Source: Verrucomicrobiota bacterium (GTDB lineage Bacteria; Verrucomicrobiota; Verrucomicrobiia; Verrucomicrobiales; Akkermansiaceae). Taken from it: DNA of 64,000 bases. Location of the stretch: the NCBI GenBank assembly GCA_004293285.1, contig RDYF01000026.1, forward strand, positions 6,812-70,811, written 5' to 3'. The position numbers and the translations under genes were made by a program. The notes under the pieces are model-generated. The model did no database searches and had not been told where the DNA came from. It worked only from the letters and a program-made list of their open reading frames with translations. This document shows, piece after piece, positions 10,335 through 32,341 of the stretch. Within the stretch, counting starts at the first letter, position 1; every line of letters starts with the position of its first letter.

Positions 10335-10441
10335 AATTAACGAAGAATTTTTAATTCACACAAGATTGTATACATAAAACGGTATAGGTAAAGGAAATTG
10401 TTCATTTTTTGTTCAAAAAATTGTTACGAGTGAGGGGTGGA

Positions 10442-10494
10442 GAGCAGGGATTGCGGTAGCGCAACCCCTGCTCGATTTATTTGCTTTTTGTTTT
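10442..10494 (+). terminator. Strong stem-loop plus T-tract on the plus strand, an orphan intrinsic-terminator-like element
   Basis: GAGCAGGG-a-TTGCG-GTAG-CGCAA-c-CCCTGCTC (13 bp, 10442-10473) is followed by GATTTATTTGCTTTTTGTTTT. A second hairpin, CTCAGG-TGG-CCTGAG, lies at 10498-10512. Both flanking genes are on the minus strand, where there is no U-tract. Confidence 0.35.
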
Positions 10495-10538
10495 CGGCTC
10501 AGGTGGCCTGAGAATGGTTGAATGAGTGCTTCGAAATT

Positions 10539-13500
10539 TCAGAAAGAATCCTCCTTGTTTTCCTCGTCGTCTTCTTCCTCGCCGCCGCCATAGCCGAGGA
10601 CTTCGACATCGATCAGCGAGATGCCTTGCGCGAGTTCTTGCTCGGAGGATTCCTGATCTTGACGATTGGCGGCATCGCTCTGAGTGGTGTTGACATTGGC
10701 ATTATTGGCCGCAGTCACGGCCGAGATGCTGGGTGCGGAGGGGCCCGTGGGAGTGCCGACCGAGTTGCCTCCGACGGAAATGTTTCCTGCGTTCAACACT
10801 TGTTGTGCGGCGATGTTCAGATTGCCTGAAACTCGGATGCCCGCATCACCGGCATCGACCGTTCCGTTCGGTGCGATTAGATCGACATCACCGAGCGGCA
10901 CACCCGCCACAGCGGCCAAGGCACCAATGCCCCCACCCGTGGCGAGGCCGGCGAGGTCCGTTTGTACTGCGGCGCTCTGAGAATCAATCAGCACGCGGGT
11001 CGGCGGCGCGGAAGTAATCGTTTTGGACGAAGAACCTGCCGCGATGTCTCCTTTCGACGACCAAATGATTTGATTGCCGCCGCGAAGCGTGAAGATCCGA
11101 CCGATGCCGATATCGATATTGTTCTGCGCAAAAATGGAAATGTTGCCACCGAACTCCGTGATGATCCCTGGCGGAGAAGCGGGAGAGCCGATCACCGTAT
11201 CCGCGAGAGTCAATCCACCTCCGGGCATGGCGAGTTGAATTTCGCCACCTGCGGTGGTGCGAATGTTGCGCGCCCGCGTGAAAATGTTGCCTGCGGCAGG
11301 ATTTTCTCCCATCAGCAACTTGATCGCTCGCTCTGCGATGTCGTAATTTTGCGCAGTGGGGAAATTGCGCCCTGCATCGCGAAGGATCAACGAGAACACG
11401 CCGAGCGCGAGTCGCGATTGCTCTTCCTCCGAAAGCGTCGAGAAATTCACACCGGGCGCGAGCTTCTCAAGATACTTGGCTCCGCTTTCGGTATTGACGA
11501 ACTGATCGATGAAGCCGGACCAGTTCAAGGAGCTATTGGCTAGCGTAAAGGCTTGGGCAATGCCTGCGCCCAGAACCAAATTCGCCCCTGCCGAGGGGAG
11601 ATAGGGATTGCGCGTATTGCCAATGCTCGTCACCCCAGTGCCGGTGCCATCGGTAAAATCCAACCCAATTCCCAAGTCGAGATTGCGCCCCGCGAGGACT
11701 TGCAATGTTCCATTACCCGAAATCTGAATGTCTCCTGCGAGCGGAATGCTATCGATGTTGACAACATTCCCCGAACGGTTCGCCGCAATGCGCAGTGGCG
11801 AATTGGCGTTCGATAGAATGATATCGCGCCCGGCCGTGACCGATGTGGCATCGCTTGGTCTCGCATTTTGCAAATAGAAGGCAATGTCCGATAGATCTCT
11901 GCCGGCGTGAATCAAAGCGAATTTCGATGAAAACAAGGTCAGCCCCGAGATATCGCCCGTTCCTGCAAAAAGGCGCAAGGGATTGGGATCATCTCGATGC
12001 AGGATGCCTGGTGTGTGCAGGGTTTGCTTGTTTTCCAGAGCAGCAAAGGGACCACTGGTGGCACCGGTTTCTTGGAACAGGCGATTGATGAAGCTGAGGA
12101 AACCGGAGCGCGTCGACCGCGCCTGTGTCAAGTCATTGCCCACCAGCGTCTTGTATCCAAAGGGACTCGTGATGCCAGGAATCGCGGCGGGGTTAGCGTC
12201 CGATAGATTGATGCGCGCAGCACCCCATGATGTACTCGTGCCATTGAAAGTAACGCGTCCATTGGGTTGCAGGCCATCAATCGAATTCGCGGCAAGGATC
12301 TCCACATTGCCAGTCGACGAGGGCGTCAAATTCATTTGCCCGACCAAGCTCACCGATCCCGCGAGAGCGGTCGCAGAGAGCGTCGGTGGCAACAACGAGA
12401 CCGTCGTGCGGAATGGCTCTGCACTCGTTTCGGCAAGACGCAGCCAAGGTTGATAAAACGACGAAGTCACCGGGTTGGTTCGAAGGATCTGTTGTCGATC
12501 GATCCAAGCAGCGAGCAGCGACGTGGTATTGCCCGCGCCCGAAACCGGCAAGGTGGCACTTTGTCTCAGCGTTAGATTGCCTCCTAACGAAAGCGCATTC
12601 ACATAGCTATCGGCAGCATACGTGCTGAAATACGATTTCTGCCAAAACGTGTTGTTGATGCCAACAGGCAACAAAAAGACATTCGCCGTCGGACCGAGTA
12701 GCAGATTGCCTGAGGCCGTGACATCAAAGCCGCCTTTGCCCACAAACAGGGTGGTCGGCAACCATGTGTTCGCATCGAGAATGTTCGATGCCCCCGTGAG
12801 CTGGGTCACCGAAGGCGACCGGGTCGCATTGGTGATGATATTGCCGCCAGCGGAAATTTCGCCTTTGCCACGCTCGACATAATACACTCCGGCATCGAGA
12901 TCATTGCCTGCGCGAACCAATAGATCACCACCGCCCAACTCCAACATCTGAGAGGCATTCGGTGTGCCGCGCTCCATGCGCGCATTGGTGGGAATCACCG
13001 CGTCGACGTTGTTGATGTTGTTCGCAGCAACCATGCGCACGTTGCCTCCGCCCAGTGCTCCGACTCCTTGGAAGAAATTGCTGAAGTCCACCCACCATGT
13101 GGTAGAAGCCACATCGCCAAAGCGCGAGGTGCCAAACTCTCCCGTCAAGGGATCAACAAAGCCCCGACGATAGAGCCAGTTGTTCGGCAGTTGCCGCTGC
13201 GAGTCGGCGATGACCTGATTCTGGTTATTGCGTGTGATTCGTTCAATGTCCTGACCCGCAGTAAGCGAAACATTGCCACCTGCCATGGTGTATTGCACGG
13301 GATAGGTGGGGTTTTGCTGAATCGCACCTAAGGTCACATTGCCGCCACTTTGATCGAGGATCGGAAGGTCAAAGCGTCCGCCCATGGTCGGATCGAGCAC
13401 TTGCGTACCTGCCGTGTAAATGGTGGCAAACTGATTCAACAATTGCACACTGCGCCCGGTGTGGATGGAAATGTCTCCGGTGCCGGTGCGAATCACTTGA

Positions 13501-16500
13501 AAGCGATTGTTCAAGGCAAGCGCAGTCGTCGCATTGTTGCCCGGGGTATTGTTCGATCCGTTGCTGTTCGAGAAATTGCTCCCGTTGTTCTTGCCTAACA
13601 GCAAAGAACCATTTCCTGCCGCTAGCGATGGCAGGGCTAAGGTTTGACCAAAGTGGGCAGCACTAAGATCCGCACCAGCGACCAAGCGATAGGACCAAGA
13701 TTGCACATTGGCGGGCAACAGCAAATTGCGCGACAACAAGGGTGCGGTGTAGGCCGAGGAAACAAAACCGTCACTCAAAGCATTATGAAACACCAAGTTG
13801 CCTGAGGCTCGTAGCGTCAACACACCGGGAGCTTGATTGGGCCCCACGCGGAAATTGCCCAGATTCCAGTCCGCAGCAGCGGTCGATGTCGGCGTGCCTA
13901 AAGTCAGATTGCCATTGCGATTGATGATTTCCGCACCGGGCGCCAGGACCAAGGAAGAGGCCCATAGCGACTGACTCGACAACAAGCGATTCATCATCGT
14001 CGAGTAACCTGCCGAAGCATTTCCTGAAGTGCCCAGAAAACTCTCCGCGTCGGACCGAATCTGATTCTGCACCGCCGTCGTCATGGTGCCACCACTCGCC
14101 GTTAGATCATACAGTCGATAGGCTTCGGCGATGATCGAAGAAGCTCCGAGAATTTGACCGCTGATGGCTTGAATGGCGACATCTTGGTTGATACGAGGAG
14201 CGCGCAAATGCAATTGCCCCGTGAACTTGCCACGGCTGGCACTTTGAAGATCCGCTTCTGCCACTTGCAAGTTGATCAAAGAACCTGCTCGAATGTCGAG
14301 CACACCCGAACCCACGACTCCCAAGCGCTGACTCCCTGCTTCGAGTGTCACTTGGCCACCCTTGCCTGCATTGCTGAATTTCTGCGCCGAGGCATCGAGC
14401 TCAGCACCATCGAGCAAGCTGAGATTGCGATGGGCCGATAGATGAATCGTTCCTCCTTCCGTGCCGTTTGCAGCGATGCGACCACTGACTTCGATCGAGC
14501 CCTGATCGGCATACAAGCGGAATTCGCGCGCTTGCACATTGCCGTCTATGGTCACATCCCCTTGACGCACTCGGAAGCTTTGCCGCTGAGTAAACGCCGA
14601 ATTACTCAACTTTTCGGCAAACGCAGAAATCGTCGGAAGAGTGCTCACGTCGAACGCGACCGAACCATTTCTCCCATTACGGCCTGCTTGCCCCATGAGC
14701 TGACCCGCGAGTTCGATGCGACCTTGTGGCGCCGAGAGAGTAAGCGCACCTGCATCGCCGCCCGCAGCCTTGGCAGAGAGGTCCATCTTCGCTGTCGACG
14801 CGATCACGATGTTGCCGGTTTGCGATGCGAGCCCCACTTGACCTGCCGACGTGTAGCGTCGTGCACCACCGAAATTTCTCTCCGTGCCTGCAACATCGAT
14901 CGATCCACCGACGGTAATATCACCCACGCTTTCTAACGATAAAGATCCACTGGGAAGTTGGATTTCACTCTGCATCTGAATCGAATTCCCGATCAGGCGC
15001 AACGAGGCGCCAAGGCCCGAAGAAACCAAATTGCTGGTCGAGCTAGCATTCGTTACGACCAAATTTCCACCCGCAGTGATCGACCGCACGGACCCCGCAG
15101 TGCCGCTGATGCGCGGCGTCTGCACGTTCAAATCCGACTGCACCGAAAAGCCGCCATTGCTTTCGCCGAGGATGCCACGCGATGCTTGCAACTCCACTTG
15201 TGCGTAGTGTTGCGCCGCCGTTTGATTCACACCCAAGCGAATCCGATCCGCCACCAATCGCAAAGTACCATTGGTCGCTTGTGTGGGTTGAGCCACCGCA
15301 ATCTGATTCGGGTTTTGCAACACGATTTCACGCGCGGTGATTTGCGTCACTCCAGCATTTTGCTGCAATCCTTGAATCGTCGACGCGCTCAATCGCAAGG
15401 ATGTCAGCTGCGAGCTGCCGAAGGAACCGCTGCCATAGAGATCAATCGTCGAATAGCTCGACAAGTTGATGCTCGATGCGCTCTGCAAATCGCGCAAGGT
15501 GCGATTGGTCAAAACAAGACCGTTCGAGGGAGCTGTGAGTGTGTCGTCGAAAAGAATGTTGATTTTCCCAGCGCCAAAGGTTGACGCGGTCGACAACAAC
15601 GAAGCGGTTGGATCCAGTGACAAGCGTGACGTAGAATCGAAAATCGTAGCACCACCCTGAATTCGTGCGCCGCTGCCAATGCTGAGTAGTGGCACTGTCG
15701 AGGCAGTCACATTGCTGCGAACAAGCTCTGCCTGAGCATCCGCCGCCACGCGCAACAGTGCGCCGTCGCCCGATATCACGATTTTGTCGGCAGACGCCGT
15801 GGTGGTTGAGGTCGAACGGATCACCGAATTTGCCGACACCGTTACCTGATTTTTCGCTGCGAGGATGATGTCTTCCGCAACCAGCTCGACACCTTCATTG
15901 TCCACGATCACAGAACCACTGTTGACTTGAACGGCGACACCCGATTCGGTGCGCTTGCGGGTTCCTCCGATCAACAAGCTCGCAGCATTGAACTCACGCA
16001 ACACTTGCGCATTCAATTGAATGGCGTCAGACGCTTGGGACCACTGATTCGAAATTCGGAGATTCAACTGCGAACTGATATCGATCTCCGCACCTCTGCC
16101 ACCGGAGATCGACGGGGATAGGACCGTGCCACGCAAATCCATCGACTGAGAGGAAGAGATGCGCAAAGACCCAGAGTCCTTCGGCAACAGAGGAATCGAG
16201 GCATTCAGAGCTGTTGCGCTTTGCTGCAAAAATGCATTTGCGGAAAAATCCTGGTATTGCGCCCGCGCTCGCACGACGGCAGCGGGAACGACTTCGAATC
16301 GAGTTCCTACCGATGGGAAGGCGCGTTGTTGATTCAAGGCATTGTAACGCACACCCGTGACGATGGCCGCGCCATCAGGCGTTTGTACTGTTCCCACACT
16401 GTTTTGCTGGTTCGCTTGCACCATCAAGGCTCCAGGCAACAGAGCATAGCGAGCCGGCAACAAGGTGTAATACCCCGCTGGCAAATCTTTGCTAGCGCTC

Positions 16501-19500
16501 AGATAAATCCGATCGCCCACATTCAACTGACCATTCAGGTAGCCCGGAGCACCTTTGATCAAATTGTTCACATTCTGAGAATCATTGAATGCTGCAAAAG
16601 GCGCGATGTTCGCATCATATCCGGGAATGACGGCAAATCGCTGGGTGGAATCAAGAATGTCGGTAGGACCACCCAAACCTGGCACAAATCTCGTCGCATA
16701 CAAATCACCACCACCGCGAAGATCGATCGTCGACCCCGCTTCCTGGGTAATGTTTGCACCGAACAAACTCACGGTTTTCTGAGGGGGACCTGAAGCGGTA
16801 ATGTCGACTCCACGAGGATCAATCCACTGATTTCCGTTAGGGCTAAAACCATAGGGCAAAACCAAGCCTTTGCCGGTTTGCGGATCAACGCCCGATACCG
16901 ATGTGATGGACCCGTTGGCCAGCACCAAACTGGTCGTGACAGGAAACGGCCGCGCATTGCCTGTGAACCAATCGCGCGGCAAGTCTCCCGTGCCATCATA
17001 ACCCAAGCGAATCGATCCAAATGGCGCACGCAGGACACCTTGGTGATGGATGCTGGACGCGAATACGTTCAAGCTTCCGCCAGCCGACAAAGGCAAGCGC
17101 CGAGAACCCGATTGCTCGATCGAGATCGAACCCTTTTGCGCGCCTTGTGCGTTTTGATAATCGTAGGCGATCAACTGAAATTCGCTCGCCGTGGTGGGAT
17201 AAATTTGCGCCGCTTTGAGCTTCAAATCGCCGGCAATGATCATGGTGCCATTGCCGCGAATGTCTCCATTTTGCGCCGTCAATGACGCCGAACCCGTGCC
17301 TTGCAAACTCAATCCTCCTACGTCGATCGTATTTGCTACGATATCCATCGTACCAAGTCCATGTTTGGCAGGAATGATCAAGGGAAGATTGTTGAACAAG
17401 ATCGGGCTCACTTCTTCTTCAGGCAGTGCAGGTCGCTGGAATGGCAGACCGATGGAGACCGCTCCCGCTTCGATGGAAAGTGCCGACTCCCCGAAGAGCA
17501 AACCACGATCGGCAAGTTTGACTTCTCCTCTTGCACGAATCGCAACATCTTCCCGGACTTGCAACACGCCGCCGAGTGACAAGGAGTCGAAGCCGCCGTT
17601 GGCAAATGAATCGATCTGAAAAAATCCCTGTCCGCTTCCCAGATGGCTCGAAACAAATTGCCCCAATGGATTGCCGAGCAAAGGCTGTGTCAGAGTGGGT
17701 CCTCGTTGACCAATCGTCAGAGTAATGTCGGCGGGCGATTCGATTTCTGCGAGAGAGTAAAACCGATTCGACGAAACACTCAAAGTTCCACCCAGTGCCG
17801 TAGCGCCACCCGCATGGGCTTGCAGCGTGGCATCGGTGATCAACGATTGACCACCCCGCAGCACGATGGCTCCGCCATTGCTTTCCACCGTGACAGGCAC
17901 AAACTGCTCGACACGCGGCACGCTGACCACACCATTGTCGTTGAGCGCGAGGTTTGGTTGAAACACATTCGCCAAGGCTGGGTCGATGTCCAACACGCCA
18001 CTCGTGCCCGAAACATCGATCAAGGCGCCCGACTCGGCAACGATGTTGCCTTCAACGGTGATCGAGCCTCCAGAATAGACCGTTCCGATTCTCCGACCAA
18101 AGGGATCAGGTGTCAGCACCACCGAACCGCGTGCCGAAAGCACACTGTTGCATCCCAAGTGTGTGGTCGTCAGCGGTCGCGCAAAATCTCCAAAGATCGA
18201 GCTCGAGTTGCTCGCTCCCGAAATCTTGATGTCGCCCGCCGGTGTGATGATCGATCCTTGAATCGAAACCGCATTGGCAACCGCCGAAAACGATCCGCGC
18301 GATTCGAGCTGAATCAGCGAATTCGCTTCCATGACAATGCGGCCCACCGAAAGAAGTCCGCCCGTGAGAGTATCCGTCACACCAGGAGCCGAAAGATGAA
18401 TGCTCACGGGTTGACGCTCCCCTTCGACTGGCGCACGACCGAACAATTCTTCAAATGCTCCCACCGTGATACCTTCACCAGGTGCCTTGGCGACAGCTCC
18501 AAGAATTTTCTGCACCGGACGAATGATGGTGTTTTCTTTGATCGTGATCGCATCGCGCTGATCATTGCCCAAACCACGCAGGAGAAAGCGCTGGAATCCG
18601 CCTTCACTGAAAAATTCCGGTGCGATCCAAAACGCATCAGCGTCCGCTGTCGATCCACCGATTTGCAAGAAAGGGGCCTGCAATGATAAGGTGCCACCGC
18701 GCTTGCCTGAATACCCTAACAAGTTTCCTTTGAGCGACAATCCGCCGCCAGTGATCGAAGAAACCAAAGGATCTTGACCAGCTTTGAGAGTGATGGTTCC
18801 GCCATCCCCAAAGACCCCTACTCCTTGCGGGCTCAGCGCGTAACCACCGGAAACATCGATCACACTCTTTTCTTCCAAGTTCAGCGAGAGAGCTTGGATG
18901 GATACACTACCTCCTTGAATCGTGACGGGGGTCGAACCAGAAGAACTGGTCCGGTCATCGGTGATCGATCCCGAAACGTCCAACCGCGCATTGGCTCCCA
19001 AGCGGAAAATGCCACGACCCGGTTGTAGGGTTGGAAGTTCCGGCACTTGCTGACCTAACAACACTGCCGTAAGAAAGGGCGATACATTCAAGGCGCGGAA
19101 AGACAACTGACCGCCGGGTGCATGGACATTTCCTGCCACATCGATGATCGATGCACTCAACGACAAAGCTCCGCCTGGACCCATGGTGATGTTGGTCGAT
19201 TCGGGAATGATGATTCGTCCCAATTCATTATGAATCGTCAACGAACCCATGCCGCGCGACTGCAAGACATCGGCATCGATCTGCACGAGATTTCTGCGAC
19301 TTTCGGCGATCGGTGTCGGATTGCCATTTTCATCTAACGAAAAATCAGCAACATCTGGCACATCATCATTTGGTTCAAAAACGACATCGACCGAATCGGG
19401 ATAAGTGATGAAGAAATTGGGTGATGTGCTTTGTTGTCCGCGGAAGTTCAAGATCATGCTTCCTGCTTTCGGAAGAGAGCTACTGAGCAAATTGTTGCGA

Positions 19501-21740: not shown

Positions 21741-21770
21741 AACAAATCATGAAAAGAGGTTAGGGAATCG

Positions 21771-22625: not shown

Positions 22626-22636
22626 AGATTCTTTGC

Positions 22637-23284: not shown

Positions 23285-23288
23285 GACA

Positions 23289-25088
23289 TCAGAAGTTGGC
23301 ATTCAATTCAAATTGGAAGATATCGACACCAAAGGGCGCACCGGAAACTTCATCGCAACTCATCCATCGCACTCCCGCACGGGTGTGCGGGTTGATGGCC
23401 ATGACTCCGCCGAGGCTGAATCCTTTGATGTTGGTTCCTGCAGAAAACTCCGAGTCGGTGAAACCATCAACCACCGCATCGGACTCGACGTAGCGATAGC
23501 CCATGGTCACACTCCAATCACCTCGCACTTCAAAGGCGGGTTTTCCAAACTGAAACAACATGTTGTAGGCATTGTTGCCGCCATCAAAGGCGCCACTGCC
23601 ATTGCGATTGTTGACCGCAATCGACTGCACCGAACCGGCATCAAAGGCGATGTTGCGCGAGTACTCGCTGATCAATGACAGGCGATGCCCCGAGAGCAGA
23701 TCATAGTCCAATCGACCCGTATTCGAGATCACTTGGAACGGTGTGGCGAGACCATAGTACTGGAATTGATTGATGGTGCCAAAGTTGTTCGCCGCCGTTG
23801 GCAAAATGTTGCGGATGGGCCGATAGGTGTTGCCACGTTGCGCAAAGCCTGGACGGGACGCATCGGTATCGCCGATGTCTTCCGGTGTCAGCGGAACAAA
23901 AGGCGACGACAGCTTGCCTTCGATGTTGTCGAAATCATAATACGCCGACGCCAGGCGGGCTGTCGTTTTTTCATTGATGCGCCAGTCGATCCCAACTTGT
24001 GCACCATACAACCACTTATCGTAGCTCTCAAACTTCTTCGGCTGATTGATCGCAAAATCGAGTGCCGTGTTGAAGATCGGGAAAAGGCCTCCTGCATAAA
24101 AGAATGTTAGATCGCGATTGAGCACCTGATTGCCTTTGAAGCCTATGCCATCGAATCCGATGTCTAAGTCCCATACGACATCTGTGGAAAAAAACGGATT
24201 GTCGAATCGACCCAACATGATGTTGAACTTCGAATCGCTCTCGTCGACAATCTTGATGTCGAGAAACGCGCGGTCAAGCCACAGCGGATAGCGGGAAAAG
24301 CTCCCTGGTCCGCCGCCCAAGGTTTGGTTGGTGGTAACGGGTGATGTGCCATTGCCCGTCGCCATGCGAATGCCTGCCATGAATCCGTCATCGATGTCGA
24401 TCTCAGCACCAAAGCGCGCGCGCTGAAGCATCCGCGAACGATTTTGGTCGACATTGAATTGAGGCGAAAACTGATTGCCTGTGGTATCAAAGGGCAAGCC
24501 TGTATTGATCACATTGAAATTCGGAAAGACGCCCGAATTGTCATTGCCATCGGCGTACATAAAACTTTGGTGTCGAGTCCGCAGATCGATAATCGGACGA
24601 ATGCGATTGGTCCACTGTGCAGCTTCCGGCTGGCCCCACTGCTGCTCGCTTGCTTCTGCGAGGATCTCTTGTTTGATCTCATCGCGAATGTTGTCTCTCA
24701 CCACCTTGGGCACATACGTGACGCTGACTTCATCCTCCTCGACGGCGGGCAAGACCGAAGGTGCCGTAGCAGTAGCAGCTGCGGCGGCTTTTGCTTCTGC
24801 TTCGGCTTGGGCAATCAGCGCCAATCCTTCTTCTTTTGTCAAAAGACCTTTTTTCACTAGCAAGGCCGTGAGATTGACTGCGACATTGGTCGATGGCTCG
24901 GGACGCGCTTCCTCCACGGGTGGTAAAATCTCATTGAGCTCAGCAGGCAAATCGGGAGTCGCGACTTGCGAAGGCAGCGCATCGATCTCGGGCAACTGAG
25001 TCGACTCTTGTGCCGCAGCCCACTGAATGGACATGCTTGTGGCAGCGACCAGCATGGGATGGATGCGATTGTTAGGATACCATTTCAT
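23289..25088 (-). CDS. Outer-membrane beta-barrel ('putative porin' type) with a long periplasmic N-terminal extension
   Basis: Signal peptide. The N-terminal segment LLVKKGLLTKEEGLALIAQAEAEAKAAAAA is typical of PVC putative porins. It has alternating aromatic/Gly beta-strand sequence and the C-terminal barrel signature ...FQFELNANF. Confidence 0.65.
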   Translation of the reverse strand: MKWYPNNRIHPMLVAATSMSIQWAAAQESTQLPEIDALPSQVATPDLPAELNEILPPVEEARPEPSTNVAVNLTALLVKKGLLTKEEGLALIAQAEAEAKAAAAATATAPSVLPAVEEDEVSVTYVPKVVRDNIRDEIKQEILAEASEQQWGQPEAAQWTNRIRPIIDLRTRHQSFMYADGNDNSGVFPNFNVINTGLPFDTTGNQFSPQFNVDQNRSRMLQRARFGAEIDIDDGFMAGIRMATGNGTSPVTTNQTLGGGPGSFSRYPLWLDRAFLDIKIVDESDSKFNIMLGRFDNPFFSTDVVWDLDIGFDGIGFKGNQVLNRDLTFFYAGGLFPIFNTALDFAINQPKKFESYDKWLYGAQVGIDWRINEKTTARLASAYYDFDNIEGKLSSPFVPLTPEDIGDTDASRPGFAQRGNTYRPIRNILPTAANNFGTINQFQYYGLATPFQVISNTGRLDYDLLSGHRLSLISEYSRNIAFDAGSVQSIAVNNRNGSGAFDGGNNAYNMLFQFGKPAFEVRGDWSVTMGYRYVESDAVVDGFTDSEFSAGTNIKGFSLGGVMAINPHTRAGVRWMSCDEVSGAPFGVDIFQFELNANF

Positions 25089-25113
25089 CTTTGTCTTGGA
25101 TGGATTGAATTGA

Positions 25114-25812
25114 TTAGGATTTTTGCATTTTGATGCGCATGCGAATCGGCATGGGCATGTCTTCGGGGGGAGCAGGAAACAACACGCCCATGAAGATTTG
25201 GCGTATGGTTTCGGATGAGAGAGAGCTTTCTTGCGATCGACGAAGAACGACGACTTTGTTGACTCGTCCTGTGCGATCGGCCCAGACCTTGAGCTCGAAA
25301 ACCAAGGCTTGGCCCTTGGTATCGGGATGAGCGGCGAGCGCAGACTTCAGAGTGTTTTGAATTCGACCAGCATACCAACCCCATCGCGATCCTTGACCAC
25401 GACCTGCACCACCATTGCCGCGACCACCTCCGGCATCATTGCCTGCGGTGAGTCCGTAGCCATTTGCGCCATCGCCTGTAATGCCTGTGCCCAAGTCGCC
25501 CGGCGCTTGATCAGGAGTCGCCGGAAGTTCGTCGGGCGGCGGCTCTTCTTCTGTGACCGGTTCTTGGGCGATCATTTCTTCGACCACTTCTTGCTCGGGC
25601 GCGTCGGGTGGAGTTTGCTCCGGCTCTTTCGTCGGTGGAGGTGGTGGCGGCTCGGGAGGCGGTGGTGGCGGCGGAACAAACACTTGAATGGGCTTGTTGT
25701 TCAGCGTCGGACGCTGTGAAGAACTTTTGCCGCTAGGCCATAGCGTATACGACAGCAACACCAGGACGATCCCAGCGGCCCAGTACCACTTTGTTGTTGC
25801 GAACTTGTTCAT
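25114..25812 (-). CDS. tonB: TonB-family energy transducer
   Basis: N-terminal TM helix (WYWAAGIVLVLLSY), a Pro-rich rod (PPPPPPPEPPPPPPTKEPEQTPPDAPE) and a C-terminal TonB-like domain. It overlaps the exbD stop by 4 nt. Confidence 0.7.
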   Translation of the reverse strand: MNKFATTKWYWAAGIVLVLLSYTLWPSGKSSSQRPTLNNKPIQVFVPPPPPPPEPPPPPPTKEPEQTPPDAPEQEVVEEMIAQEPVTEEEPPPDELPATPDQAPGDLGTGITGDGANGYGLTAGNDAGGGRGNGGAGRGQGSRWGWYAGRIQNTLKSALAAHPDTKGQALVFELKVWADRTGRVNKVVVLRRSQESSLSSETIRQIFMGVLFPAPPEDMPMPIRMRIKMQKS

Positions 25813-26246
25813 TTCTGTGTGGCCAATCCAATTTTTTCGATTTCTACCCGACCCAATACATCCAGCACATCCATGATGGTCTGATACTGCGAGGAACGAT
25901 CGCCGCGAACCACGACAGGTACATCGGCATTCTCTTGCTTGATGCTGGTGAGCTTGCTCTCCAGTTCCGTAAGGCTCACAGGAATGGTGTTGAGAAAAAT
26001 TTTCCCCTCAGGACTGATGGTGATCGCCTGAATTTTAGGCGTGCTCAAGTCGGCCGTCGCCGGCTTGCTGGAGGCTTGAGGCAAGTCCACTTTCAAACCC
26101 TGCACTCCCGCCGTCGTCATGATAATGAAGATCAACAAGAGTACAAGGTAGAGATCCACCATCGGCGTAACGTTGATGTCGTCGTAACTTTTTTCTTCAT
26201 CTCCTGCGTTCATAATGAAATCGATGGTTGTGATGGTTCGAGTCAA
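25809..26246 (-). CDS. exbD: ExbD/TolR biopolymer transport protein
   Basis: DINVTPMVDLYLVLLLIFIIMTT...VDLP...ISPEGKIFLN...VVVRGDRSSQYQTIMDVLDVL is the canonical ExbD layout. The alternative ATG at 26213 is possible. Confidence 0.85.
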   Translation of the reverse strand: MTRTITTIDFIMNAGDEEKSYDDINVTPMVDLYLVLLLIFIIMTTAGVQGLKVDLPQASSKPATADLSTPKIQAITISPEGKIFLNTIPVSLTELESKLTSIKQENADVPVVVRGDRSSQYQTIMDVLDVLGRVEIEKIGLATQK

Positions 26247-26257
26247 AGATCAGATGA

Positions 26258-28159
26258 TCATTCCTTGCCGACCTCAGACGGACGGCCCGACTGCGGCGAT
26301 GGATCGATCGCTTTTTCGGGAAACAACTCGGCGATGCGAGCCACGTATTCTTCGATGAAAACTCGCATTTCGATCACGGTGTCTTTGATTCGGGAATTGA
26401 GATAAGAATAAATGAACAGAGCAGGAATCGCGACCACTAGGCCCGCCACAGTGGCGAGCAAGGCCGAGGCGATCCCGGGAGCGATGGAGTTCACATCCAC
26501 CTCGCCCGATTTGGCAATGATGGCGAAAGTAATCATCACACCCACCACCGTGCCCAAAAGGCCGACGTAAGGACCACCCGCAATCGAAATGGTCAGATAG
26601 ATCAAACCCTTGCCGAGCTTCTTTTGTTCTCTTGCTAGCCCCGTATCGAGCGATGCTTTGATGGCGTTGATCGATCTCTCGGTAAGTCCAGTAACGAACA
26701 ATAGTTCTTCTTCGGAACGATTTTTCAGCTCTTTGAAGCCAATGGAAAATACATGGAAGATAGGCGACTTGCGGATTGCCGCCATGTCTTTCTCATCCGC
26801 TAGATTTTCTAACAAAACTTCAGGATCTTCGTCGATCGAACGCAACAGCTTTTTGTCGGCGGAAATTTGACTCCACAGTCGGACAAAGGACTGGGTGCCT
26901 TGATCAATCGAATTGAGGTAACGAAACTTGCGCACTGCCACCGACCAGCCGAAAACGATCATGATCAAGCAAACGCCTACCGCAATCCATCCGTCGAACA
27001 TCATGTTTTTGGCAATGTCGCCAAACAGCATGACGTGCTCTAGCGCTTCTGAGGCATGACCTCCTTGTCCTTCTTCATCACTCTGTTGGACAGACACCAC
27101 GCGCTGCGCCACTTCGCTGGGCCCTTGGGCGATGGCATCAAACTTGATCCAGTCGACACTGCGATCGACATCCGCCAGTGTCAATGCATCGAGCTCACCG
27201 GTATAAGGCAGCACACCATTGGTGGCCGACTCGACACCACCGAGCAAGATCGATGAATCCAAGAGCGGCGTTTTCGCATTGATGGAGCTGCTTTCCACTC
27301 CGTCGATGTATGTTGTGATCTTCTCCCCTTGAGCAACCACGGCGATGTGGCTCCAGGAGTTGATCGGAATTTTTTTCCCAGCAGTACTGGTTGTCGTTGC
27401 CGCACGATTGCCCACTTCCACCACTGGAGCGTCGGCGATCAACTTGACTCGGAAGATCGCTTGGGCATTTTCTCTCGATAGAATCACCGCATTTTCATGG
27501 CTCTGGGTAGGCTTGATCCAGAAAGACACGGTCAGCTTTTGCCCATCAGACCAATTCAATGATTCGGATGAAGGAATGACAATCGGATCGCCAGCCAGTT
27601 TGACACTTGAGCCGATGATTCCTGCATTCGAAGTAACACCACGATTGCTCGAACGATTTTGATGTTTCGTGCTGTCTTTGAAAGGCTCGCCTTGGCTCAA
27701 GAAATCGAACTGGAGTCGCGTTGCGTCATCATAGGCATCGAACGATTCGGTCTTTCCGCTGGCATCGCTCGATCCATAATAGAGATTGATCGTGGTTGTT
27801 TTTTTGCTCGATAGGTTGGGAACTTTGACCCAGACCAAGGCTTCGTATAGCAAAGCGTCGTAACGCTCGATCGAGTGAGGCAGAACAGTCTTGCCGTCGT
27901 CGGCGATGAATCGCAAATCACTGCCTTGATCGGCGGCGACGGCGAAGTTGAAATTGCCTTCGTGCAAACGAATCAATACCGTTTTTTGGGACAAATCGCT
28001 AGAGAACCCTTCGATGTGCTGTCCCGGGTTGAGAATGATCTGTTGCTTTTGCGTCCAAGAGTCGTTCCACCACTCATTGGCGGCAGCAAAAGAGGACGTC
28101 AGAATCGTCAGGAGTGTTGCAATTTTGAACATGGTATCGGAAGTTAGAAGTTGGTCCAA
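26258..28159 (-). CDS. exbB: MotA/TolQ/ExbB proton-channel protein with a ~390-aa N-terminal periplasmic DUF2341/LamG-like domain
   Basis: The C-terminal ~230 aa have ExbB TM helices and GGPYVGLLGTVVGVMITF...APGIASALLATVAGLVVAIPALFIYSYL. The N-terminus has a signal peptide (MFKIATLLTILTSSFAAA), a WWNDSW...LRFIADDG region resembling DUF2341, and a concanavalin/LamG-like segment (LTVSFWIKPT...WSHIAVV...TTYIDGV). Confidence 0.8.
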   Translation of the reverse strand: MDQLLTSDTMFKIATLLTILTSSFAAANEWWNDSWTQKQQIILNPGQHIEGFSSDLSQKTVLIRLHEGNFNFAVAADQGSDLRFIADDGKTVLPHSIERYDALLYEALVWVKVPNLSSKKTTTINLYYGSSDASGKTESFDAYDDATRLQFDFLSQGEPFKDSTKHQNRSSNRGVTSNAGIIGSSVKLAGDPIVIPSSESLNWSDGQKLTVSFWIKPTQSHENAVILSRENAQAIFRVKLIADAPVVEVGNRAATTTSTAGKKIPINSWSHIAVVAQGEKITTYIDGVESSSINAKTPLLDSSILLGGVESATNGVLPYTGELDALTLADVDRSVDWIKFDAIAQGPSEVAQRVVSVQQSDEEGQGGHASEALEHVMLFGDIAKNMMFDGWIAVGVCLIMIVFGWSVAVRKFRYLNSIDQGTQSFVRLWSQISADKKLLRSIDEDPEVLLENLADEKDMAAIRKSPIFHVFSIGFKELKNRSEEELLFVTGLTERSINAIKASLDTGLAREQKKLGKGLIYLTISIAGGPYVGLLGTVVGVMITFAIIAKSGEVDVNSIAPGIASALLATVAGLVVAIPALFIYSYLNSRIKDTVIEMRVFIEEYVARIAELFPEKAIDPSPQSGRPSEVGKE

Positions 28160-29733
28160 GTGCGGAAAATGAGTCGTGATTCCCCTTGGGACGTGTCTGC
28201 AAAATCGGTAAACGGAAAAGCGAGATCGAGCGTGCCATGATAGCGCTCTGCGAGGGAGAATCGACCGCCCACGCCAACACTAAGAAATTCTTCGTGCTGG
28301 TCCTGTGCTGGGAGTGGATCGTGAATGCTCGACACCCCCGCGTCTGCAAAGACATGCAAGCGTGCTTCGTCGTTGGCAAAAAACTTGTCGTGGATCCACG
28401 GCAGGAAGTTCGGGGTGCGAAGCTCGGTACTGAGGAACCACGCTTGATCGCCGAGTGCGGTCGATTCGAGATAGCCGCGGGCCGAACTCCATCCGCCAGC
28501 AGCAAATTGTTCGGTATTGATCAAGGGTTGATCGGAAATCTGGCCTTGGATTTTTCCGTACCATTGCCACTGACGAAAGATTTCGTGAGTATGCGACACA
28601 TCGAAGCGGTTGTAGATGTAACTGCCCTTTGCGAGAAAACGCTTGTCGTCAAACCGTGCATCATCATCGCCGAGCTGACGCAGAGCAAAATTGAGTGAGC
28701 TATTGACTTCAGTGAGCGATTTTTCTTTTTTGCGAAACCAGCTGTAGGCGAAAGAAGCGGGATAGTAATTGATGGGATTGCGGATGGTCTCCGTGCCGAT
28801 GGTCAGACGATCATCAAAGCGCTTGGCATCGATGCCAACGCTCAGCGAATGAGTATCCGGCAAGCGGAACAAGGCCCGCAAGCCGAGGATTTGACCGCGC
28901 CCTGCCGATGCCGCGCCGCCTAGGGTCGATACATCCGAGTTTTGCTTGGTCGCACTCAGCATCAACGACAAATGAGGATGAATCGGTGCCAAGTAGTATC
29001 CCGATGCCACTTCGGCATCATCGCGATTTTCTGGTGCAATCTGATAACTGATTCCTGCGGTATGACCTAACTGAAACAAGTTGCCATAACTGATCGAAGC
29101 ATTCGCACGCAGTGGCGATGTTTGCGGGTTGTAACGATTGTTCAATTCGAAAGAACCGTGGAGTGGGAAATGATCTTCGACATCCAGATCGACATCAAAT
29201 GTCCCGGGAATGCTGCCCGCCTGAATGCGTGGTGTGACTTTCAGGTCCGCACTCTGATTCAGCCCAACAATTTCTTTTTTGACCGTTTCAAAATTCGGCA
29301 CCGTTCCTGGCGCGAGAGAAGTGATTTGCGATTTGATACGGCTCGGCAAATGATACCGTGAGCCATTGACGCGGAGGTTGGCGATTTCCGACTCGACCAC
29401 GCGGAATTGGATGATTCCCTTCGTAGGATCTTGCTGCGGGATGATGACGGAAACGGTTTGATAACCCTTTTCGTGATAAACCTTTTCTAACGCCGTGCGT
29501 GCCTTTTCGACATCGGCAATGCTTTTGCCTTTGCCGAGATAGGGATAAATCGCTCTCTCGATCTCCTCGACACCGATCTTCTTCGCTCCTTTGACGCGGT
29601 ATTCTCGGATGAAAAGTCGTGCGCTTTCTTTGTCTGGTGCAGGGTTTCCTAACGCGACCGAAAGCAGCGTTAGCAGCCCTGCAACAGAAAGTGTTTTGGC
29701 CGATGATCCGAATGTTATGCGCCGAGTGCTCAC
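28144..29733 (-). CDS. TpsB outer-membrane transporter (ShlB/FhaC/HecB family)
   Basis: POTRA region IREYRVKGAKKIGVEEIERAIYPYLGKGKSIADVEKARTALEKVYHEKGYQTVSVIIPQQD...IQFRVVESEIANLRVNG. The barrel has FELNNRYNPQTSPLR and INTEQFAAGGWSSARGYLESTALGDQAWFLSTEL, and ends ...TWTNF. Confidence 0.85.
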   Translation of the reverse strand: MSTRRITFGSSAKTLSVAGLLTLLSVALGNPAPDKESARLFIREYRVKGAKKIGVEEIERAIYPYLGKGKSIADVEKARTALEKVYHEKGYQTVSVIIPQQDPTKGIIQFRVVESEIANLRVNGSRYHLPSRIKSQITSLAPGTVPNFETVKKEIVGLNQSADLKVTPRIQAGSIPGTFDVDLDVEDHFPLHGSFELNNRYNPQTSPLRANASISYGNLFQLGHTAGISYQIAPENRDDAEVASGYYLAPIHPHLSLMLSATKQNSDVSTLGGAASAGRGQILGLRALFRLPDTHSLSVGIDAKRFDDRLTIGTETIRNPINYYPASFAYSWFRKKEKSLTEVNSSLNFALRQLGDDDARFDDKRFLAKGSYIYNRFDVSHTHEIFRQWQWYGKIQGQISDQPLINTEQFAAGGWSSARGYLESTALGDQAWFLSTELRTPNFLPWIHDKFFANDEARLHVFADAGVSSIHDPLPAQDQHEEFLSVGVGGRFSLAERYHGTLDLAFPFTDFADTSQGESRLIFRTWTNF

Positions 29734-29774
29734 AGTCTTGATGTGCGATGAAATCGAGAGGTCGATGAGATCGA

Positions 29775-31217
29775 TTACAATGTTCCTGGGAATACCGTGC
29801 CGCCGTCTTCGGTGCGGAAGACTTTGAGGTTGGTATCGTCGAGACGAATTCCTTGCTGACTGCCGACATCAATCTTGATGCGATTGATCAATGCTTGCAC
29901 AAAGTTGGCACGGAAACTTGGACTTGGATCGCCGGCGCGTGCGGCCACTCCCGATTCTGGAATCACCACGCGATTGTACAACCACAGCGTGTAGCTGCCA
30001 TTTTTCACATTTTCTGGAGTATTCTCTACGCCATTGAAACGCAATTTGACCCCGACCGTGCTCGCGGGACGCTGACCTGCTGGCTGACCAATGCCGAGAA
30101 TCGTGGCATCGGCATCACCCGGTGTGACATAACCAATGTACCAGCCATCTTCCGCAGCGGGATCGACTTTTTTGTATGCCGTAGGGGAAAGTCGATAGGT
30201 CAATGCCGTCGCCAAGGTCGCCCCACTGGGGTATCCACCGCTCGCGGTAATGCCCGAGAAAGTTTCTTCGACGCCGTTGTTCCATTGACGGTGATCAGAC
30301 ACCAGGCCACCAATCGGTTGACTGCTACCGATGACAAACGAATTGTTTGGATTGTAATTCGGATTCGGAATCAGTGCGTTAGGATTGTTCGGATCGACGA
30401 TCTGTGGCGTGTTCGCGGTTCCCCCGTTGGTCGGGGCTGGATTCGGCTGCCAGTTGTATTGAAAACCAATGCCCGATCGACCGATTTCTTGCTGCGCGGC
30501 AAAGCGCTGCCCGGCATCGGTGTTACGACCCAGCGCATAAATGTACTTCTTCGAGTCGGTCGCCCAATTGCCAGTGAATAGCGCAAGCGGCACAACGCCA
30601 GTGTCATAGAGCAATTTCGCCTGTTGGGTGGTGATGTTGGTCACGCCCGTGTTCTGAAATCCCGGACTGGCATAAAAACCCAACTGCGAAATGCCTACCG
30701 GAATTTCACTGATGTTGTTGTAGGTTCTGCCATTGTACTCGCCGATGAAGGGAGAGGTCGACTGGAAGTTGGTCGAAAGCCCGAAGTCGACGTTCGACGT
30801 GATGAAATGCGCGGGATTGGTGGCAGTATTGGGATTGGAGGGAATCGCTACGCCGCCGCGTCCATTGGTGGAGTCGAACCGCACTTGCAGCGTCGGATCG
30901 GCCACAGCTGCAATGCCTGCAAGCGCACCGGCATAGTTGGTTTTGATGATCACGTTGGTGCCATTCCAAGTACCATTCCAAGTGCCCGCGTTGGATCCAC
31001 GCGAGTTGTTATCGACAGCTTGGTTCTCGCCACCTGCACCGGTTGATGATCCTGTTAGACCTTGGTAGCTCCAGTTGGTGAGAAGTCGGCTAATCGCCAC
31101 TTGTGTGGCATTGCGGTCGCCATTCGATGCCGCAAAATAGATCGTCACTTGAGCGTGTAGGGTCGGTGCCAGAAACAAGCCAAGCGCACTGAGGGTGTTG
31201 ATAAGTTGATTTTTCAT
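29775..31217 (-). CDS. Secreted protein of unknown function with a weak periplasmic-binding-protein (PstS/PBP-like) signature
   Basis: Signal peptide MKNQLINTLSALGLFLAPTLHAQ. The C-terminal YIGYVTPGDA...VKLRFNGVENTPENVKNGSYTLWLYNRVV resembles the conserved end of PstS-family binding proteins. The N-terminal match is poor. Confidence 0.3.
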   Translation of the reverse strand: MKNQLINTLSALGLFLAPTLHAQVTIYFAASNGDRNATQVAISRLLTNWSYQGLTGSSTGAGGENQAVDNNSRGSNAGTWNGTWNGTNVIIKTNYAGALAGIAAVADPTLQVRFDSTNGRGGVAIPSNPNTATNPAHFITSNVDFGLSTNFQSTSPFIGEYNGRTYNNISEIPVGISQLGFYASPGFQNTGVTNITTQQAKLLYDTGVVPLALFTGNWATDSKKYIYALGRNTDAGQRFAAQQEIGRSGIGFQYNWQPNPAPTNGGTANTPQIVDPNNPNALIPNPNYNPNNSFVIGSSQPIGGLVSDHRQWNNGVEETFSGITASGGYPSGATLATALTYRLSPTAYKKVDPAAEDGWYIGYVTPGDADATILGIGQPAGQRPASTVGVKLRFNGVENTPENVKNGSYTLWLYNRVVIPESGVAARAGDPSPSFRANFVQALINRIKIDVGSQQGIRLDDTNLKVFRTEDGGTVFPGTL

Positions 31218-31246
31218 AATGATTCGATTTTTGATTTTTCTTGTTT

Positions 31247-32341
31247 TTAGGGATTGGAAACGATGGTGCGGTAAAAACCTTTGCTGCGCGACGTGCGCAC
31301 GGGGTCGGTATCGACAAAGTTGAGCGGAGTCGCAGCGCTGCCCGATAGATGAACGTGCACTTCTTGCCAGTCGTTCGATAAGGTCTGGCTGTATTGCACA
31401 ACATAGCGACGATTGGCGATGGTCGACAACTGAATGGTCGCTGAGACTCCGGGAACGATGGTGGGAGGATTCATGCGAAAGAACGAAGACGCACTTTGCG
31501 GATCAGTGCCTGCTAACAACTCTTCTCCATCGCTGAAGTGATCGCCATCGGTATCGATGGTGAATGGATCGATGAGCGATGGCTTGGTAAAGCTGATGAC
31601 GCCGTTCGTGCTGATGCTGAAGTAGCCCAAATATTCGACCGTTCCTCGGGCGAAGAGCGATGCTCCTTTGCGATGCACGTAGAAGTCCAAGGCCGCATCG
31701 GCGGCACCGCTCGCGAAGCTTTTTTCGACATTACTCCAAGTGCTGAAATCTTGCCGACCTGGTGTCGCCACTTGCGCAAAGTAGCTTTCACTTCCTGTGA
31801 GCTGAGTCTGAAACGAGCCGCGCGGATTGTTCGAAGTAGGCGATAAGACGTTGTAGCCTTGCGACGTGACCGTACTGATTTGACCATACGCCGCATTCTG
31901 CTGCTGTCCTGTCAAGGCAGTCCACGGGACGCTTTGAGTCGGAATCGACGGCCTTGCTTTGGTGATAAAGACCGCTTCATTGTCCGAGAAATTTCTCGCA
32001 AAGGCCGACCAAACCACTTGGGCTCTTTGATGCCATTGCGTGAGACCATTCTCATTGAATGTATCGTAATTGCTCAAATCGGTACCAAGTGCACTCAGTT
32101 GAGTCAACGGAGTGGTTGTGCCGGGATTGGCATTGACGAACTGCGAGACCGGACCGGCGTTGACCAAGTACGACCCGGTCGACGCGTTGGAGGTATCTCG
32201 GAAGGCGATAATCACATCGCCCTGCGCCGCCTGCGTGACTTGTGTCGCGCGCAAGACCATGGTGTGGGCCATGAGCACGATGGCGATCCATTTCCAATCA
32301 TGGAGATGAAGCAACTTACTTTTTGTTTTGAAGAAATGCAT
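31247..32341 (-). CDS. Secreted hypothetical protein with a thrombospondin-type-3-like Ca-binding motif
   Basis: The likely start is the ATG at 32341 (MHFFKTKSKLL...IAIVLMAHTMVLRA). It contains IDTDGDHFSDGEELLAGTDPQSASS. I recognise no other family. Confidence 0.5.
   Translation of the reverse strand: MHFFKTKSKLLHLHDWKWIAIVLMAHTMVLRATQVTQAAQGDVIIAFRDTSNASTGSYLVNAGPVSQFVNANPGTTTPLTQLSALGTDLSNYDTFNENGLTQWHQRAQVVWSAFARNFSDNEAVFITKARPSIPTQSVPWTALTGQQQNAAYGQISTVTSQGYNVLSPTSNNPRGSFQTQLTGSESYFAQVATPGRQDFSTWSNVEKSFASGAADAALDFYVHRKGASLFARGTVEYLGYFSISTNGVISFTKPSLIDPFTIDTDGDHFSDGEELLAGTDPQSASSFFRMNPPTIVPGVSATIQLSTIANRRYVVQYSQTLSNDWQEVHVHLSGSAATPLNFVDTDPVRTSRSKGFYRTIVSNP

Follow-up and report, generated by a model that had tools for sequence, protein, structure and literature searches.

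Gene content of the ten-gene cluster

In this study, we analyzed a locus that combines a two-partner secretion (TPS) pair with a motor of the ExbB-ExbD-TonB type. The window, the whole stretch of DNA examined, is 64,000 nt long and comes from a Verrucomicrobiota (Akkermansiaceae) assembly (GCA_004293285.1, contig RDYF01000026.1, positions 6,812-70,811 of the forward strand). Its ORF listing contains a minus-strand cluster of ten co-directional open reading frames (ORFs) at 10539-32395. In the direction of reading, these encode a secreted TSP3-repeat protein (gene 1; ORF 31247-32395, likely start 32341), a secreted PstS-fold protein (gene 2; 29775-31217), the Omp85/ShlB-type transporter TpsB (28144-29733), an ExbB/TolQ-type proton-channel subunit (26258-28159), an ExbD/TolR-type subunit (25809-26246), a TonB/TolA-like protein (25114-25812), a Porin_5 outer-membrane protein (23289-25088), a periplasmic coiled-coil protein (22637-23302), a parvulin-type peptidyl-prolyl isomerase (PPIase; 21771-22625), and the 3733-residue exoprotein TpsA (10539-21740). 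The gaps from gene 1 to tpsA, recomputed from the ORF coordinates, are 29, 41, -16, 11, -4, 25, -14, 11, and 30 nt, and internal ATG starts turn the -16 overlap into +11 and the -14 overlap into +4. A first-pass annotation had described ten co-directional genes with such gaps, and both coordinates and gaps were reproduced here. The domains it had named (TPS, POTRA_2 with ShlB, MotA_ExbB, ExbD, DUF2341, and Rotamase) were all found by hidden Markov model (HMM) searches.

TpsB matched the Pfam families POTRA_2 (4e-15) and ShlB (5e-20) and the structures of CdiB and FhaC. However, it lacks the N-terminal H1 plug helix and the linker of about 30 residues found in FhaC and CdiB. In the alignment with mature CdiB, residue 56 pairs with residue 42 of TpsB (signal peptide included); only about 12 residues separate the signal peptide from POTRA1, and the ORF cannot be extended upstream. 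Across 63 members of the TpsB family, the segments before POTRA1 are likewise short and of low complexity (about 5-25, at most about 45 residues). According to a review of TPS systems, an H1 helix is predicted for the majority of TpsB proteins, and FhaC needs its linker for activity (PMC5422565).

TpsA carries a TPS secretion domain at residues 146-343 (20712-21305, minus strand), which matched PF05860 with 58.8 bits (1e-15; cutoff 33.5) when the N-terminus was scanned alone, and TIGR01901 at 1e-15. The protein has an extended signal peptide, and its mature N-terminus is family-specific: DILRGG is followed by a conserved helix (ARANA..LARTT..L..VRAMQ) and then by the TPS domain. Compared with the extended signal peptides of its relatives (MKPKRFYFR...FIGFTVLISGLDANA|GDILRGG), the N-terminus in the window (MSLPHPKDQSSARAKSRKLVSLVGRLVFMHPILVQGDILR; 21600-21740, minus strand) is less hydrophobic, and its start codon and cleavage site are uncertain. 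In adhesin and toxin TpsA proteins, the C-terminus is the variable end. Here, a DUF3739 domain (E=5e-31; residues 3554-3665, 10746-11081) lies within a C-terminal module of about 380 residues, and the last 383 residues are 46-64% identical among the 120 relatives listed of 733 matches. Alignment conservation further marked a tail strand motif at residues 3708-3718 (10587-10619), S-L-I-D-V-E-V-L-G-Y-G in the window and (S)-I-I-T-V-E-V-L-G-Y-G-G in the family form, placed after a low-complexity linker and before an acidic tail. Its V, E, and G are invariant in the sequences from the window, Methylosinus, Klebsiella, and Aquabacterium. As a sequence, the motif resembles a TonB box, for example the D-T-I-T-V-T-A of FhuA. 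Some verrucomicrobial DUF3739 C-terminal fragments (P0178, P0196, P0199, P0235) are recorded with a PDZ domain after DUF3739, and two of the PDZ-bearing fragments are named RseP-like by their source. These could be true fusions or PDZ protease genes merged with tpsA by gene calling, and the records would be relevant if the conserved TpsA tail is a protease or PDZ ligand.

The pair shares its TPS domain, its POTRA_2 and ShlB barrel, and a giant beta-helical exoprotein with FhaB/FhaC and CdiA/CdiB. In contrast to these systems, the partners in the window are six genes apart, TpsB is without H1 and linker, and TpsA ends in a conserved DUF3739 module that bears a tail motif, instead of the variable toxin or adhesin end of classical type Vb proteins. 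FhaB/FhaC and CdiA/CdiB also have no associated motor.

The ExbB protein contains DUF2341 (4e-16), Laminin_G_3 (5e-17), and MotA_ExbB (1e-27) domains in Pfam. The first two form a periplasmic DUF2341/LamG ectodomain of about 355 residues (about 27020-28081, minus strand). The role of DUF2341 on ExbB-type subunits was given as unknown in a 2025 survey (PMC12505986). Against known structures, the membrane part scored about equally with TolQ (1.9e-16) and ExbB (1.2e-14), and the family models matched by the motor subunits were tolQ (1.6e-33, versus 7e-22 for exbB) and tolR (4e-27). The motor is best called ExbB/TolQ-type. The ExbD domain was found at E=9e-27. Since the essential transmembrane Asp of ExbD is present (D31, in TPMVDLYLV), the motor looks functional. 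The TonB/TolA-like protein consists of an N-terminal membrane helix, a polyproline spacer, and a C-terminal domain of about 90 residues.

The outer-membrane protein matched Porin_5 at E=5.6e-177, and its closest relatives are porins of Luteolibacter. Its AlphaFold2 (AF2) model, of moderate confidence (pLDDT 66, pTM 0.61), is a 16-strand barrel without a plug, preceded by helices at residues 69-79, 85-106, and 128-148 that would form a periplasmic stalk of about 100 residues. The best Foldseek matches were OmpM1, OprB, OmpF/C, and DcaP, with PorB also found (E 1e-14 to 1e-9), and a search of the Porin_5 profile against PDB sequences returned no relative. OmpM1 of Veillonella parvula and DcaP of Acinetobacter have a 16-strand barrel with an N-terminal helical extension like that of the model; unlike them, the porin shows no sequence similarity to either, has no SLH domain, and bears a tip motif specific to Porin_5. 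This stalk-tip motif (residues 65-85, 24834-24896, minus strand), P-S-x-N-V-T-V-N-L...L-V-K-K-G-x-L-T, was identified by alignment conservation and is conserved in both phyla considered below, with P65, N72, and V78 invariant in both porin alignments. Its core resembles the TpsA tail motif. The stalk tip is a candidate docking site for the TonB-like protein.

The two remaining genes encode periplasmic helpers. The coiled-coil protein is detectable in the Methylosinus and Klebsiella loci at 23-26% identity. The PPIase has a Rotamase domain (6e-17) and an N-terminal chaperone-like region.

Conservation of the cassette and its counterparts in Proteobacteria

A previous report gave the order of the PAO1 genes as pdtA, phdA, pdtB, exbB2, exbD2, tonB4, PA0696, PA0697, PA0698, and PA0699, with PA0696 a putative outer-membrane porin, PA0697 a hypothetical protein with a signal peptide, PA0698 a YbjN protein, and PA0699 a PpiC-type protein (PMC2729926, PMC7035377). 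The window has the same component order, minus phdA and YbjN; its coiled-coil protein and PPIase take the positions of PA0697 and PA0699. This comparison rests on the published PAO1 annotation and on other proteobacterial loci that we aligned. The same gene order was found in Methylosinus sp. C49, Klebsiella quasipneumoniae, Aquabacterium olei, and Cupriavidus. By tblastn, these four share 23-56% identity with the window in TpsB, in ExbD, in the porin, in the coiled-coil protein and PPIase, in each half of ExbB, and in each end of TpsA. The locus is thus very probably a verrucomicrobial member of the Pdt-type cassette, in which the motor works with the TPS pair and the porin.

The window also differs from the Pseudomonas locus in several respects. 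It has tpsA within the operon as the 3'-most gene, an arrangement shared with the alphaproteobacterium Methylosinus sp. C49, and PstS-fold and TSP3-repeat genes are added at the 5' end. A YbjN gene is not in the window, where the 11- and 30-nt gaps leave no room for it, and one is present in loci L001, L002, and L085. Unlike the PUMA3/sigmaVreI regulon (PA0690-PA0701), the window has no vreAIR genes, and a scan of the operon and ten flanking ORFs revealed no gene for an STN protein, a sigma factor, or FecR.

The association itself has been described before. In 2009, Llamas et al. reported that homologues of the TPS genes, of exbBD, and of PA0696 keep company in Pseudomonas, Burkholderia, Rhodopseudomonas, and Janthinobacterium (PMC2729926). 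Subsequently, it was shown that one PhoB/sigmaVreI-dependent low-phosphate promoter transcribes phdA, pdtB, exbB2D2, tonB4, and PA0696-PA0701 (PMC4971064). Published descriptions still assign no function to the motor or to PA0696-PA0700 (PMC2729926, PMC7035377), and no mechanism for the cassette is offered in the literature searched. The first-pass annotation had named a link of PdtA/PdtB with exbB2-exbD2 and a TonB gene in P. aeruginosa, which is correct (PMC2729926, PMC7035377), and the synteny goes further than stated there, to the PA0696 porin, the PA0697 coiled-coil protein, and the PA0699 PpiC. Its proposal of a cross-phylum module also held, with the cassette in at least two phyla. It had called the function essentially undescribed; this stands for the mechanism, which is unexplained in the literature searched, but the association and the co-transcription are both already published. 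The mechanisms that it put forward (Ton-energised secretion, anchoring, retraction, or uptake) are hypotheses. The locus is therefore a member, in a second phylum, of a known but mechanistically unexplained cassette.

Co-occurrence of the components was examined from two anchors. In the first scan, a Porin_5 alignment was searched against one genome per GTDB species, and the best 80 of 286 relatives were taken, all of them from Verrucomicrobiota (Akkermansiaceae, Verrucomicrobiaceae, and Chthoniobacterales). Only loci with enough flanking DNA were counted, and in these each partner lay on the same strand and in the same order. TpsB was present in 59 of 59 such loci, the ExbB ectodomain in 65 of 65, the ExbB membrane part in 68 of 68, ExbD in 70 of 70, the coiled-coil protein in 73 of 73, and the TpsA N-terminus in 61 of 61. 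The TonB-like protein was found in 62 of 74 loci by tblastn and in 81 loci by an HMM search of ORFs. The PPIase was found in 33 of 69 by tblastn and in 37 loci by HMM, and gene 2 (10/53) and gene 1 (8/50) were rarer.

The converse scan used a five-sequence alignment of the ExbB ectodomain alone against metagenome contigs, from which 80 loci of at least 454 relatives were examined. Their G+C content ranges from 0.53 to 0.74, many are nearer to the Methylosinus version than to the window, and the set is probably taxonomically mixed. TpsB lay directly upstream in 59 of 59 loci, and ExbD (58/58), the TonB-like protein (43/43), the porin (24/25), and the coiled-coil protein (23/24) accompanied it. 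TpsA was found downstream in 11 of 17 metagenome loci; in four loci without it there, a TpsA C-terminus lies just upstream of tpsB, as in Klebsiella and Aquabacterium. Among 72,556 plasmid and chromid records, the same 12 hold a full-length DUF2341-ExbB and a full-length Porin_5, and the two genes are about 1.5 kb apart in 11 of the 12. DUF3739-type TpsA C-termini occur in 16 of the plasmid and chromid records, 11 of them among those 12. A tblastn search for the TonB-like protein across phyla had no success with this low-complexity sequence, and its presence there is taken from annotation and position.

Co-occurrence is therefore near 100% in both directions, with fixed order and strand, over more than 200 loci, and the conserved module that the first-pass annotation had anticipated was found from either anchor. 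Seven genes make up the fixed core, those of TpsB, ExbB, ExbD, the TonB-like protein, the porin, the coiled-coil protein, and TpsA. A cassette may lack the PPIase, and genes 1 and 2 are accessories of particular lineages.

Two loci depart from this arrangement. The metagenome contig ERZ27253305:k119_549287 (locus L087) carries tpsB, the TonB-like gene, the porin, the coiled-coil gene, the PPIase gene, and tpsA at 7543-21824 and has no exbB or exbD; the TonB-like gene sits between tpsB and the porin gene. Upstream of this cassette are distant homologues of genes 1 and 2 together with a regulator that combines HTH_3 and PBP_like. Because this locus keeps the TonB-like gene without exbBD, it suggests that the arm protein is functionally tied to the outer-membrane parts and is able to use a motor from elsewhere. 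On the Methylomagnum ishizawai plasmid pRS11DPr1 (L083, L088), the cassette is split over about 40 kb. There, exbB-exbD-tonB-coiled-coil stand in one place, tpsA, tpsB, and a PstS-type gene about 15 kb away, and the porin gene about 6 kb beyond the binding-protein gene, beside phoU and a calcium/proton exchanger; the intervening DNA encodes PhoX, an alkaline phosphatase, and a radical-SAM RiPP cluster.

Genes 1 and 2, phosphate, and regulatory signals

Gene 2 had been described as PBP-like from the sequence. Its product is 100% identical to the hypothetical protein EAZ81_02625 of a Verrucomicrobia bacterium MAG. As a single sequence it found no match in Pfam or the PDB, and its relationship to PstS was revealed only by the family profile and the predicted structure. 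The profile matched the PstS structure 4exl at E=3e-5 and 4ecf at 9e-4. The AF2 model has a pLDDT of 87.3, and its Foldseek ranks 1-27 in the PDB were all phosphate-binding proteins, with target-normalised TM-scores of up to 0.77. The earlier description was thus borne out, and profile and model together confirm a predicted type II periplasmic-binding fold of the PstS family, which is shared with PstS and the DING phosphate-binding proteins. Gene 2 encodes a protein about 200 residues larger than PstS, with large insertions, and no ABC-transporter partner is encoded in the operon. The canonical phosphate site of PstS is an R...S-G-T loop. In the invariant gene 2 loop GRNTDAGQR, the Arg and Gly are retained and the Ser and Thr are replaced; a further loop reads ASNGDR. 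An HMM search found gene 2 in 12 related genome loci, and it is also present in several metagenome loci.

PstS-type genes also stand beside the cassette in three proteobacterial lineages, which makes four lineages with the window. In Methylomagnum, a PBP_like_2 protein with a canonical R..SGT is encoded directly upstream of tpsB, with PhoU, PhoX, and alkaline phosphatase near. In Methylosinus, a PBP_like_2 binding-protein gene that retains SGT adjoins tpsA. In P. aeruginosa, genes of the PstS-superfamily LapA/DING proteins and the Hxc secretion system adjoin pdtA (PMC2242829). In Cupriavidus, the cassette borders on genes for a type II secretion system and a DNA/RNA endonuclease. We considered gene 2 as an orthologue of the Methylosinus and Methylomagnum binding proteins, and this was rejected: no significant BLASTP or hhalign similarity was found beyond the motif ...NG..T..N...G.Y..W. 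Judged by these alignments, the three are independent, divergent PstS-type proteins.

Previous reports showed that the P. aeruginosa cluster is co-transcribed and induced by low phosphate in a PhoB/sigmaVreI-dependent manner (PMC4971064). PdtA, PA0696, and PA0698 were also among the proteins most enriched under phosphate limitation (PMC9769906). Because PstS-type genes recur beside the cassette and PhoB control and low-phosphate proteomics are on record in P. aeruginosa, phosphorus scavenging is the most likely physiological setting. This theme was missing from the first-pass annotation, and the PstS fold and PhoB control point to it. Surface appendages of P. aeruginosa that bear PstS/DING proteins appear under phosphate limitation (PMC2242829, PMC3949141); a link between these appendages and PdtA is our own speculation and is not drawn in those reports.

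Gene 1 contains one bacterial TSP3 repeat of the calcium-binding type (TSP3_bac, 28.8 bits; cutoff 25). Even an iterative HMM search found it in only 12 related loci, and a distant homologue occupies the same position in L087.

The best sigma70-like promoter of the region, TTGACA-16 nt-TATGCT (32709-32682, minus strand; 10/12 matches), lies about 340 nt 5' of gene 1. Upstream of it, an intrinsic-terminator-like hairpin with a 14-pair stem and a T-run (32986-32955, minus strand) closes a PEP-CTERM gene and marks the 5' boundary of the cluster. No comparable minus-strand terminator was found within the ten-gene cluster, and this predicted layout fits one transcription unit. An Rfam scan of the leader of about 340 nt (32300-33000) gave no match. 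A GTTAACG direct repeat lies in the leader, 3' of the promoter (32652-32646 and 32631-32625, minus strand; 21 nt apart); the heptamer occurs in just 1 of 56 upstream regions compared, and the repeat may be due to chance.

In loci L010-L077, a palindromic element, a.TGTGACAggaTcGTCACA, with CcCTTGAG six bases on, lies within 250 bp upstream of tpsB. The element was present in 44 of 47 verrucomicrobial loci without genes 1 and 2, compared to 2 of 12 loci with them. Its spacing is TGTGA-N8-TCACA, not that of CRP sites, and from its sequence it looks like the operator of a regulator. The palindrome TGTGAC-N6-GTCACA is absent from the operon in the window, where the sole match, at 42689, is at chance level. 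This absence implies that the cassette exists in two regulatory versions.

Two minus-strand ORFs upstream of the cluster, 32880-33671 and 33715-34812, have no Pfam match and lie in a stretch of low G+C content (0.468 for 32-34 kb), and no homologue of either was found in any related locus. The first carries the PEP-CTERM-like end (PETSTTLLGALGALAMLRRK), and its frame runs about 30 codons through the terminator hairpin to its stop. A 2205-residue protein with DUF6055, two Laminin_G_3, fn3, and PATR repeats (49283-55900, plus strand) and an 1126-residue protein with ThuA, DUF7133, CBM_4_9, and cytochrome c domains (39272-42652, minus strand) appear unrelated to the operon.

Candidate roles of the motor

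What the motor acts on may be considered in light of a known system. HxuA/HxuB/HxuC of Haemophilus influenzae likewise joins a TPS pair to a Ton-dependent uptake component, with the TpsA protein capturing the ligand (PMC5422565, PMC4873976), and it is the precedent for capture and import by TPS plus Ton (PMC5422565). HxuC is a plug-containing TonB-dependent transporter that works on the general TonB system, whereas the window encodes a stalked 16-strand porin and its own motor. By the same logic, with the porin replacing the TonB-dependent transporter, the cassette could be a capture-and-import machine for phosphorus, and this is the reading to which we tentatively give first place. The envelope parts would all be exported by Sec, and the parvulin and the coiled-coil protein would handle unfolded TpsA in the periplasm. 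The H1-less TpsB would thread TpsA outward, where it would fold as a long beta-helical fibre. The ExbB/ExbD-type stator would convert proton flow to force on the TonB/TolA-like protein, which would span the periplasm and dock by strand pairing on an outer-membrane partner, so that the arm transmits force to a partner inside the cassette. The candidates for docking are the conserved Porin_5 stalk tip and the conserved TpsA tail strand. Outside, the fibre and the PstS-fold protein would capture phosphate-containing material, and the stalked porin would serve as the energised entry gate.

Several observations weigh against capture and import. The modelled barrel is a plugless porin fold, at moderate model confidence, AF2 places part of the tip motif in a helix and not in an extended strand, and we know of no TonB-gated porin. 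The TonB domain named in the first-pass annotation was found in its architecture, but the match is weak, with TonB_2 at 21.7 bits (E=2e-4), just below the cutoff of 22. The membrane anchor of TonB bears the His of the SHLS motif; in the membrane-helix segments of the TonB-like proteins compared, there is no His in the helix core, and His occurs only in the cytoplasmic flank. Gene 2 is an accessory of about one quarter of the verrucomicrobial loci, and its ligand loops depart from the canonical phosphate site. Inspection of the promoter and leader by eye revealed no Pho box, the -35 hexamer is perfect, unlike those of PhoB-activated promoters, and no phosphate-regulon function was found among the flanking genes scanned in the window. 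Capture and import also does not explain the LamG ectodomain of ExbB, the H1-less TpsB, or the conserved TpsA C-terminus.

These last features would find a place if the motor acts on the fibre, the main rival reading, which we regard as possible but doubtful. The TonB/TolA-like protein would grip a periplasmic TpsA tail, and the proton-motive force would drive, arrest, anchor, or retract the fibre through the H1-less TpsB. The porin and the coiled-coil protein would then be structural partners without import, and the whole an energised type Vb system. The strict adjacency of tpsB and exbB, 59/59 from each anchor, is in favor of this, as are the conserved TpsA C-terminus, whose tail V-E...G is invariant over two phyla between low-complexity flanks, and the absence from TpsB of H1 and of the linker, which is required for the activity of FhaC (PMC5422565). 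The periplasmic LamG ectodomain of ExbB could bind a passing polypeptide, the operon encodes a dedicated PPIase and coiled-coil protein, and L087 keeps its TonB-like gene beside tpsB without exbBD. Several tpsA genes per single tpsB-motor set were also reported in Rhodopseudomonas and Janthinobacterium (PMC2729926). However, the accepted view is that type V secretion requires no energy source, and it has been reconstituted in the absence of one (PMC5422565). A motor directed at the fibre also gives no reason for the PstS-type genes, the phosphate regulation, or the invariable porin, and it assumes periplasmic retention of the TpsA C-terminus by analogy alone. The C-terminal parts of FhaB and CdiA are reported to stay in the periplasm. 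The two readings are not exclusive. In a further reading, which we consider rather unlikely, the TonB/TolA-like protein would bind the TonB-box-like TpsA tail strand in the periplasm as a proton-powered winch, and the type Vb fibre would display PstS-type binders outside.

It is improbable that the motor instead serves as a tether of the Tol-Pal kind, in which a TolQ/TolR-type motor and a TolA-like arm would hold or remodel the outer membrane via the stalked porin and stabilise the envelope at the anchor of the large fibre or during starvation remodelling. With the 5:2-type stators of Tol-Pal and TonB the cassette shares the MotA_ExbB channel, the ExbD/TolR Asp, and an anchored Pro-rich arm with a small C-terminal domain. 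The motor subunits match TolQ/TolR no less well than ExbB/ExbD, the TonB-like protein gave faint matches to TolA and to the AgmX/PglI tail, and the best fold match of the porin is OmpM1, a stalked outer-membrane attachment porin. However, the differences between the Tol and Exb scores are small, and the obligatory TPS pair and the PstS-type genes would be unexplained. No TolB or Pal domain and no SLH or OmpA-like peptidoglycan-binding domain was detected in the operon proteins. The cassette also differs from both Tol-Pal and TonB by the DUF2341/LamG domains on ExbB, an arm without the SHLS His, and the lack of a plug-type receptor.

A purely signalling role is still less probable. In Proteobacteria, TonB4 would act on the barrel-less VreA and activate sigmaVreI, and the link to the TPS pair would be merely regulatory. 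VreA-like STN, sigma, and FecR genes do precede the cassette in Methylosinus and Klebsiella, and such genes are associated with it in several Proteobacteria (PMC2729926). However, none was found in or beside the operon in the window (ten flanking ORFs scanned), the motor is kept in all verrucomicrobial loci examined, and deletion of vreA in P. aeruginosa leaves expression of the low-phosphate regulon unchanged (PMC4971064). Matches to VreA (STN) in metagenome loci coincided with the TonB-like gene or lay beside it; we set them aside as probably spurious. Finally, coincidental adjacency, with exbB-exbD-tonB serving an unrelated TonB-dependent transporter and the barrel an ordinary porin, has in its favor only the prior expectation that Ton systems serve plug-containing transporters; chance and an unrelated receptor are excluded by the three independent co-occurrence tests, a scan of the operon genes and ten flanking ORFs gave no match to Plug or TonB_dep_Rec, and the genes overlap or lie 4-41 nt apart.

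Type V secretion is the textbook case of export without an energy source, and Ton and Tol motors are thought to serve plug-type transporters or Tol-Pal. In this cassette, either a type V fibre would be mechanically energised or a porin would be Ton-gated, and both would be new biology. If the winch reading is true, it would be the first energised type V system and would give a molecular identity to the PstS/DING surface appendages of P. aeruginosa under phosphate limitation. The cassette, known from P. aeruginosa since 2009 as a set of low-phosphate-induced genes, is thus open to genetic tests at once, and TpsB without its H1 helix, the tail motif of TpsA, the tip of the porin stalk, and the PstS-type partner that recurs beside the cassette are new handles for such work. 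Phosphorus scavenging as the setting of the cassette would extend to the abundant freshwater and soil Verrucomicrobiota.

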